From Escherichia coli (GTDB taxonomy: Bacteria; Pseudomonadota; Gammaproteobacteria; Enterobacterales; Enterobacteriaceae): a stretch of 64,000 bases of DNA. Location: assembly GCF_002854065.1 (NCBI RefSeq), contig NZ_CP024147.1; one strand, 5' to 3'. The notes under the pieces were generated by a model. That model saw only the letters and a program-made list of their open reading frames with translations, had not been told where the DNA came from and searched no databases. A program made the position numbers and the translations under genes. This document shows, one piece after another, positions 36,174 to 37,820 of the stretch (within the stretch, counting starts at the first letter, position 1; every line of letters begins with the position of its first letter).

Positions 36174-37820
36174 ATGAATGGCGCACAGTGGGTGGTACAT
36201 GCGTTGCGGGCACAGGGTGTGAACACCGTTTTCGGTTATCCGGGTGGCGCAATTATGCCGGTTTACGATGCATTGTATGACGGCGGCGTGGAGCACTTGC
36301 TGTGCCGACATGAGCAGGGTGCGGCAATGGCGGCTATCGGTTATGCTCGTGCTACCGGCAAAACTGGCGTATGTATCGCCACGTCTGGTCCGGGCGCGAC
36401 CAACCTGATAACCGGGCTTGCGGACGCACTGTTAGATTCTATCCCTGTTGTTGCCATCACCGGTCAAGTGTCCGCACCGTTTATCGGCACTGACGCATTT
36501 CAGGAAGTGGATGTCCTGGGATTGTCGTTAGCCTGTACCAAGCACAGCTTTCTGGTGCAGTCGCTGAAAGAGTTGCCGCGCATTATGGCTGAAGCATTCG
36601 ACGTTGCCAGCTCAGGTCGTCCTGGTCCGGTTCTGGTCGATATCCCAAAAGATATCCAGCTAGCCAGCGGTGACCTGGAACCGTGGTTCACCACCGTTGA
36701 AAACGAAGTGACTTTCCCACATGCCGAAGTCGAGCAAGCGCGCCAGATGCTGGCAAAAGCGCAAAAACCGATGCTGTACGTTGGCGGTGGCGTGGGTATG
36801 GCGCAGGCAGTTCCTGCTTTACGAGAATTTCTCGCTGCCACAAAAATGCCTGCCACCTGCACGTTGAAAGGGCTGGGCGCAGTTGATGCAGATTATCCGT
36901 ACTATCTGGGCATGCTGGGAATGCACGGCACCAAAGCGGCGAACTTTGCGGTGCAGGAATGTGACTTGTTGATCGCCGTGGGTGCACGTTTTGATGACCG
37001 GGTGACCGGCAAACTGAACACCTTTGCACCACACGCCAGTGTTATCCATATGGATATCGACCCGGCAGAAATGAACAAGCTGCGTCAGGCACATGTGGCA
37101 TTACAGGGTGATTTAAATGCTCTGTTACCAGCATTACAGCAGCCGTTAAATATCAATGACTGGCAGCAATACTGCACGCAGCTGCGTGATGAACATACCT
37201 GGCGTTACGACCATCCCGGTGACGCTATCTACGCGCCGTTGTTGTTAAAACAACTGTCGGATCGAAAACCTGCGGATTGTGTCGTGACCACAGATGTGGG
37301 GCAGCACCAGATGTGGGCTGCCCAGCACATCGCCCACACTCGCCCGGAAAATTTCATCACCTCCAGCGGCTTAGGCACCATGGGTTTTGGTTTACCGGCG
37401 GCGGTTGGCGCGCAAGTCGCGCGACCAAACGATACCGTTGTCTGTATCTCCGGTGACGGCTCTTTCATGATGAATGTGCAAGAGCTGGGCACCGTAAAAC
37501 GCAAGCAGTTACCGTTGAAAATCGTCTTACTCGATAACCAACGGTTAGGGATGGTTCGACAATGGCAGCAACTGTTTTTCCAGGAACGATACAGCGAAAC
37601 CACCCTTACCGATAACCCCGATTTCCTCATGTTAGCCAGCGCCTTCGGCATCCCTGGCCAACACATCACCCGTAAAGACCAGGTTGAAGCGGCACTCGAC
37701 ACCATGCTGAACAGTGATGGGCCATACCTGCTTCATGTCTCAATCGACGAACTTGAGAACGTCTGGCCGCTGGTGCCGCCTGGTGCCAGTAATTCAGAAA
37801 TGTTGGAGAAATTATCATGA
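36174..37820 (+). CDS. ilvG: Acetolactate synthase II large subunit; full-length reading frame
   Basis: Uninterrupted 548-aa ORF ([34 protein letters not shown]...), ThDP-enzyme family. Confidence 0.95.

Follow-up and report, generated by a model that had tools for sequence, protein, structure and literature searches.

An intact ilvG reading frame, predicted to encode the catalytic subunit of acetohydroxyacid synthase II, in a non-K-12 Escherichia coli chromosome

Results

An uninterrupted ilvG gene at its usual place in the operon

A 64 000 nt stretch of the Escherichia coli sequence NZ_CP024147.1 (the window, whose positions serve as coordinates throughout) carries an ilvG gene that is very probably the wild-type allele of a natural, non-K-12 isolate, located at its normal place in the ilvLXGMEDA operon, encoding the catalytic subunit of acetohydroxyacid synthase II (AHAS II) and belonging to a strain that should be valine-resistant. 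An earlier reading made from the letters of the window had claimed an uninterrupted ilvG of 548 codons at 36174-37820, and the six-frame ORF list gives the same coordinates and length: a single open frame on the plus strand with an ATG start, 548 amino acids and no internal stop codon. Calculated from the base composition of the window, the chance of 548 sense codons in a row is approximately 1e-11.

The features of the operon, all on the plus strand, are as follows.

35936 to 36034, plus strand: ilvL leader peptide of 32 amino acids, MTALLRVISLVVISVVVIIIPPCGAALGRGKA, rich in Ile, Leu and Val codons (NF007744, 81.9 bits, cut-off 59)
36055 to 36090, plus strand: attenuator terminator, a G+C-rich hairpin followed by 8 U (RNA fold)
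36121 to 36171, plus strand: ilvX, a small ORF of 16 codons that ends 2 nt 5′ of the ilvG ATG (identical to K-12)
36174 to 37820, plus strand: ilvG, AHAS II catalytic subunit, 548 amino acids (NF006524, Pfam, RefSeq)
37817 to 38080, plus strand: ilvM, AHAS II small (regulatory) subunit, 87 amino acids (NF008362, 133.9 bits, cut-off 68; Pfam ACT_5)
38100 to 39029, plus strand: ilvE (annotation of the co-linear CUWW06 record)
39094 to 40944, plus strand: ilvD (annotation of the co-linear CUWW06 record)
40947 to 42491, plus strand: ilvA (annotation of the co-linear CUWW06 record)

The context of ilvG is complete, with ilvL and the attenuator upstream, ilvM adjoining downstream, and then ilvE, ilvD and ilvA; the CUWW06 annotation places ilvY and ilvC 3′ of ilvA. 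The DNA of ilvL is 100% identical to that of K-12, as is the entire stretch from the leader to the ilvG start codon. The attenuator folds with −23.3 kcal/mol (z = −3.76), a value equalled in none of 200 shuffled sequences, and its sequence is the same in K-12, O157 and B2 strains. A simple scan for terminators and promoters, which yielded no more sites than in shuffled sequence, did not report the plus-strand attenuator because its stem contains an internal bulge. The ilvX ORF is annotated as 'peptide IlvX' (WP_001387183.1) at the equivalent coordinates in CUWW06 and XJ34. The IlvM protein is identical to that of K-12, with one synonymous SNP in the DNA, and ilvE, ilvD and ilvA align to their K-12 counterparts with 97.1-98.1% identity per gene and no gaps.

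The same upstream region is matched at 35865-36154 by the Rfam family RF02744 ('Soft rot Enterobacteriaceae Rev 39 5'UTR') with 157 bits, the gathering score being 88. This match encloses ilvL and corresponds to the ilvL leader/attenuator 5′ UTR, and the Rfam family is seemingly the ilvGMEDA leader under another name.

At the distal end of ilvG, the ATGA overlap with ilvM that had been described for this segment is seen at 37817-37820, where the ilvM ATG (37817-37819) and the ilvG TGA (37818-37820) share sequence within TTATCATGATGCAA. A Shine-Dalgarno element, GGAG, lies 8 nt 5′ of the ilvM ATG and within the ilvG coding region. An overlapping stop and start combined with a Shine-Dalgarno element in the upstream gene is the structural arrangement of coupled genes, and translation of ilvG and ilvM is probably coupled.

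Identity and conservation of the IlvG protein

The equivalog model NF006524 ('acetolactate synthase 2 catalytic subunit') is matched with 1073.3 bits (cut-off 738) along residues 1-547 of the 548-residue product, and the generic model TIGR00118 with 717.6 bits (cut-off 538). The equivalog models of IlvM and IlvL are likewise matched over their full length. Nearly whole profiles of three Pfam domains are found: the N-terminal Pyr domain (PF02776, TPP_enzyme_N, residues 1-115), the central FAD-binding domain (PF00205, TPP_enzyme_M, 186-321) and the C-terminal PP domain (PF02775, TPP_enzyme_C, 374-522). RefSeq gives the identical ilvG DNA of CUWW06 and XJ34 the label WP_032281903.1, 'acetolactate synthase 2 catalytic subunit'.

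IlvG carries the catalytic residue E47 and the substrate or specificity residues F109, M250, R276 and W464, and the ThDP-Mg motif GDG-X(25)-N (GDG...NQ) begins at residue 427. On the basis of mutagenesis work on AHAS II, we take these positions to be the key residues of the enzyme. All of them are invariant in 111 of 111 homologues, each 548 amino acids long, from Escherichia, Citrobacter, Salmonella and Enterobacter, and the frame is conserved from end to end with the homologues of other genera. Comparison of the window gene with four alleles (frame-restored K-12, BL21, O157 and B2) yields dN/dS values of 0.046-0.083, which indicate strong purifying selection on the coding sequence.

The K-12 deletion is absent from the window

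The sequence-only reading had held that this gene does not look like a typical K-12 allele, and had proposed a pairwise alignment as one check. Global alignment to the MG1655 ilvG pseudogene (b4488; NC_000913.3 3950560-3952204, 1645 bp) bears the claim out. The two sequences are 97.5% identical and differ by 40 mismatches and one gap of 2 bp; the frameshift of K-12, which would have refuted the earlier reading, is not shared by the window. The gap corresponds to the following feature.

37150 to 37151 (gene nt 977-978), plus strand: AT within AAATATC, missing from K-12, which keeps the frame open (global alignment to MG1655)

At this site the sequence of the window is TTAAATATCAATGAC (L N I N D), and its frame stays open throughout, whereas that of K-12 is TTAAATCAATGA (L N Q stop), which creates a TGA at codon 328.

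The background that had been offered with this claim, that K-12 carries a frameshift in ilvG and is valine-sensitive, agrees with published work, in which the K-12 frameshift results in the loss of AHAS II, in valine sensitivity and in polarity on downstream genes (PMC7066862, PMC3446290, PMC8605374). In agreement with the alignment, the premature TGA of K-12 has been located to ilvG nt 982-984, and deletion of one further base within it restores the frame and permits growth on 1 mg/ml valine (PMC8605374). Parekh and Hatfield (1997), cited through PMC8605374, describe the polarity on ilvEDA in K-12 as Rho-dependent. That K-12 carries the frameshift and that the gene is intact in other strains is textbook knowledge going back to Lawther et al. 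(1981), cited here through PMC8605374 and bioRxiv 10.1101/2025.10.31.685768.

Intact ilvG is the norm in E. coli

The state of the junction was surveyed in 5426 complete E. coli genomes by using short junction probes and megablast with a 28-base word, which cannot bridge the alternative states. The following classes were obtained.

K-12 deleted junction: 340 of 5426 genomes (6.3%)
Undeleted junction, window type: 3495 genomes
Undeleted junction, B2 type: 1237 genomes
Undeleted junction, O157 type: 338 genomes

No genome falls in more than one of the three undeleted types, which together account for 5070 of 5426 genomes (93.4%), a figure that is a junction-based minimum and not a count of complete 548-codon frames; 16 of the 5426 genomes fall in none of the four classes. 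When 40 evenly spaced entries were taken from the 340 genomes with the K-12 junction, most proved to be named K-12 strains or laboratory strains derived from K-12, and the remaining few bear no such label and have chromosomes of K-12 size. Named carriers include MG1655, NEB 5-alpha, JM109, HB101, MC4100, J53 and O16:H48. Among 60 evenly spaced whole-gene matches to ilvG, 55 are 1647 bp long, four are 1645 bp and of the K-12 type, and one is a deletion (NCCP12480).

In this last genome, a clinical isolate (NZ_CP068680.1; locus positions 3001-5234), the first 954 bp of ilvG are fused to the distal part of ilvA. The deletion removes ilvM, ilvE and ilvD, and the isolate is presumably a branched-chain amino acid auxotroph.

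Intact ilvG is the norm of the species and the K-12 lineage is the exception, in keeping with published work on B strains (PMC3446290), on CFT073 (bioRxiv 10.1101/2025.10.31.685768) and on the valine sensitivity of K-12 (PMC7066862). Because the intact allele is normal for E. coli, the finding made here is unsurprising, and the gene is an already known, ordinary and already annotated core gene.

A rare allele shared by four assemblies

The window is co-linear with positions 57078-121077 of NZ_CP182139.1, from the wastewater isolate CUWW06 (Thailand), and strain 100416 is as close to the window as CUWW06 is. Across the 64 kb, 12 SNPs and two indels of 1 bp rule out exact identity with CUWW06. 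Relative to that isolate, the window has an extra T at 32257, in the 23S-5S spacer, and the two also differ in the length of a T run (T7 versus T8) at 35773-35780, in the yifB-ilvL intergenic region. One of the CUWW06 SNPs (corresponding to window position 36082) falls in the stem of the attenuator terminator, where the window matches K-12.

The ilvG DNA of the window is 100% identical in four assemblies, which represent two near-identical bovine isolates, one human isolate and one wastewater isolate. The exact allele is rare, as sequences of at least 99% identity occur in only 5 of the 5426 genomes and the next best match is 98.3% identical. The window IlvG differs by 6-12 amino acids from the four comparators, frame-restored K-12, BL21, O157 and B2, and four of the changes (E132K, E238D, A335T and A/S342T) set it apart from all of them. 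Of these, D238, T335 and T342 each occur in other species, whereas K132 is found in none of the 111 homologues, 85 of which have E and 26 of which have A at this position.

Divergence and structural variation in the surrounding region

From 36174 to 47438, the genes ilvG, ilvE, ilvD, ilvA, ilvY, ilvC, ppiC and rep are 95.4-98.6% identical to K-12 and O157, and the genes that flank this block (hdfR, maoP, gppA, rhlB, trxA, rho and wzzE) are 98.9-100% identical. Within the divergent stretch, ilvL and ilvM are 99.6-100% identical to K-12/O157. The divergence from ilvG to rep may reflect a patch acquired by recombination or a region of general polymorphism. A more specific proposal, that the block of approximately 11 kb (2-4% diverged) is a recombination import and that its K132 form of AHAS II differs kinetically or in regulation, is in our judgement very unlikely.

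Several further differences and landmarks were observed in the window. The ilvA and ilvY genes are convergent, with stop codons that overlap at 42488-42491, and a 58-bp palindromic REP-like element (GCCTGATAGCGCTTCGCTTATCAGGCCTAC...) that separates them in K-12 and O157 is absent from the window. The gap between ppiC and rep (45331-45416) spans just 86 bp of unrelated sequence, whereas K-12 and O157 have about 780 bp more. That additional segment, which is absent from the window lineage, includes yifN, which codes for a toxin of the PemK/MazF family and is present in K-12 as a pseudogene. At 22919-23848, rbsK is a local outlier with 94.9-95.5% identity to K-12/O157, and the adjacent rbsD, rbsA, rbsC, rbsB and rbsR are 98.5-99.5% identical. 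The ilv operon lies near oriC, which is found at approximately 11340-11610 between mnmG and mioC, with perfect DnaA boxes (TTATCCACA) at 11416 (minus strand) and 11596 (plus strand) and an AT-rich 13-mer (GATCTATTTATTT) at 11359. On the minus strand, the mechanically called yifB/comM ORF (34074-35789) extends 65 codons upstream from a GTG, in comparison with the RefSeq start at 35593 (1521 bp), and this extension is probably untranslated.

Discussion

Predicted function of ilvG and the expected response to valine

The IlvG protein is predicted to be the ThDP/FAD/Mg-dependent catalytic subunit of AHAS II, paired with the small subunit IlvM. The prediction that the enzyme is functional is a reasonable one because the match to the equivalog model is full-length, the catalytic residues are retained, the gene is under purifying selection and IlvM is identical to that of K-12. 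The complex would condense pyruvate with a second pyruvate or with 2-ketobutyrate, the first common step of Val, Leu and Ile synthesis, and expression of the operon would be controlled by the ilvL leader and the attenuator. As ribosomes would translate ilvG as far as its natural stop, they should arrive at the overlapping start codon of ilvM, which would couple translation of the pair, and ilvEDA would not be expected to suffer Rho-dependent polarity.

Unlike AHAS I and AHAS III, AHAS II would be expected to escape feedback inhibition by valine, and IlvM is expected to be the subunit that sets this insensitivity. When valine shuts AHAS I and AHAS III, AHAS II should maintain the supply of acetohydroxybutyrate and hence of isoleucine. 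If IlvG and IlvM form a valine-insensitive AHAS II, isoleucine synthesis would therefore continue in the presence of valine, and the strain should be valine-resistant. By analogy with B strains, the isolate CFT073 and frame-restored K-12, it is a well-founded prediction that AHAS II is functional and that the strain resists valine. Intact ilvG confers valine resistance in B strains (PMC3446290), and in CFT073 AHAS II is active and is the sole active isozyme in urine (bioRxiv 10.1101/2025.10.31.685768). The valine phenotype of the whole cell can be predicted only in part from the window, as ilvBN, ilvIH and valine transport are located outside it.

Alternative explanations for the open frame

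An open ilvG frame might also be found in a laboratory derivative of K-12 in which a secondary mutation of the ilvG2096 or ilvO type had restored the frame. Valine-resistant revertants of K-12 do arise readily, and single-base deletions in the premature TGA are known to restore the frame (PMC8605374). The alignment refutes such an origin for the window, which has the ancestral junction AAATATCAATGAC common to 3495 genomes and lacks a compensating indel. Moreover, ilvG alone differs from K-12 by 40 SNPs, the neighbouring genes are 1-5% different, neither the yifN segment nor the REP-like element between ilvA and ilvY of K-12 is present, and the window is near-identical to the wastewater isolate CUWW06. 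We consider a K-12 revertant to be extremely improbable, and we assign equally little weight to the proposal that the open frame is an error of sequencing or assembly that conceals a frameshift in the real genome. Nothing specific favours such an error, although one-base homopolymer indels do separate the window from CUWW06 elsewhere (32257 and 35773-35780). An assembly artefact is ruled out because four assemblies, each deposited separately, have the 1647-bp ilvG at 100% identity; in addition, the site of the K-12 deletion is not a long homopolymer, and the frame is preserved over its full length in comparison with homologues of other genera.

The frame could instead be genuinely intact and AHAS II be impaired or altered by missense changes of this lineage, chiefly the charge reversal E132K, such that little functional enzyme is made. 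The absence of K132 from the 111 listed homologues of 548 amino acids would fit such a defect, as would the E that E. coli AHAS I carries at the aligned position. However, position 132 tolerates the change from E to A in sequences of the Citrobacter/Salmonella type and is not invariant. The occurrence of both E and A means that this residue is not essential, and impairment by E132K is therefore rated as very unlikely. The catalytic and cofactor-motif residues of IlvG are all intact, the K132 allele is unchanged in four assemblies from three kinds of source, and the dN/dS of about 0.06 signifies strong purifying selection. A wild-type ilvG of a natural isolate, with functional AHAS II, is the explanation that we prefer.

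This explanation makes the source a natural isolate of E. coli outside the K-12 lineage, one that should resist valine and express ilvEDA free of the polarity defect of K-12. Its relevance is limited to branched-chain amino acid physiology, to metabolic engineering, or to media that are poor in isoleucine and contain valine, such as urine. Beyond correct annotation, the finding matters little.

Comparison with known acetohydroxyacid synthases

The nearest solved structure is that of the large subunit of E. coli AHAS I, IlvB (PDB 6LPI), which aligns with IlvG over residues 2-544 (E = 2e-161). The two proteins belong to one fold family and have three ThDP-enzyme domains in common, but IlvB is a paralogous isozyme that is encoded by another gene, is partnered by IlvN and is inhibited by valine (PMC7066862). 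The IlvG proteins of Salmonella enterica and Citrobacter are likewise 548 amino acids long, have 91-93% amino acid identity to the window protein and are identical to it at all of the catalytic residues checked; at position 132 they have E or A in place of the K of the window protein.

Within E. coli, the IlvG proteins of B/BL21 (WP_001012606.1), O157:H7 (WP_001012623.1) and the B2 strain 'clone D i2' (WP_001012593.1) differ from that of the window by 6-12 amino acids, and have in common with it the length of 548 amino acids, the position in the operon, the ATGA overlap with ilvM, the leader and the attenuator. K-12 resembles the window in its ilvL, attenuator, ilvX and IlvM protein, all of which are identical. 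Its 2-bp deletion leaves K-12 lacking AHAS II, valine-sensitive and with polarity on ilvEDA, whereas the window carries the undeleted ilvG.
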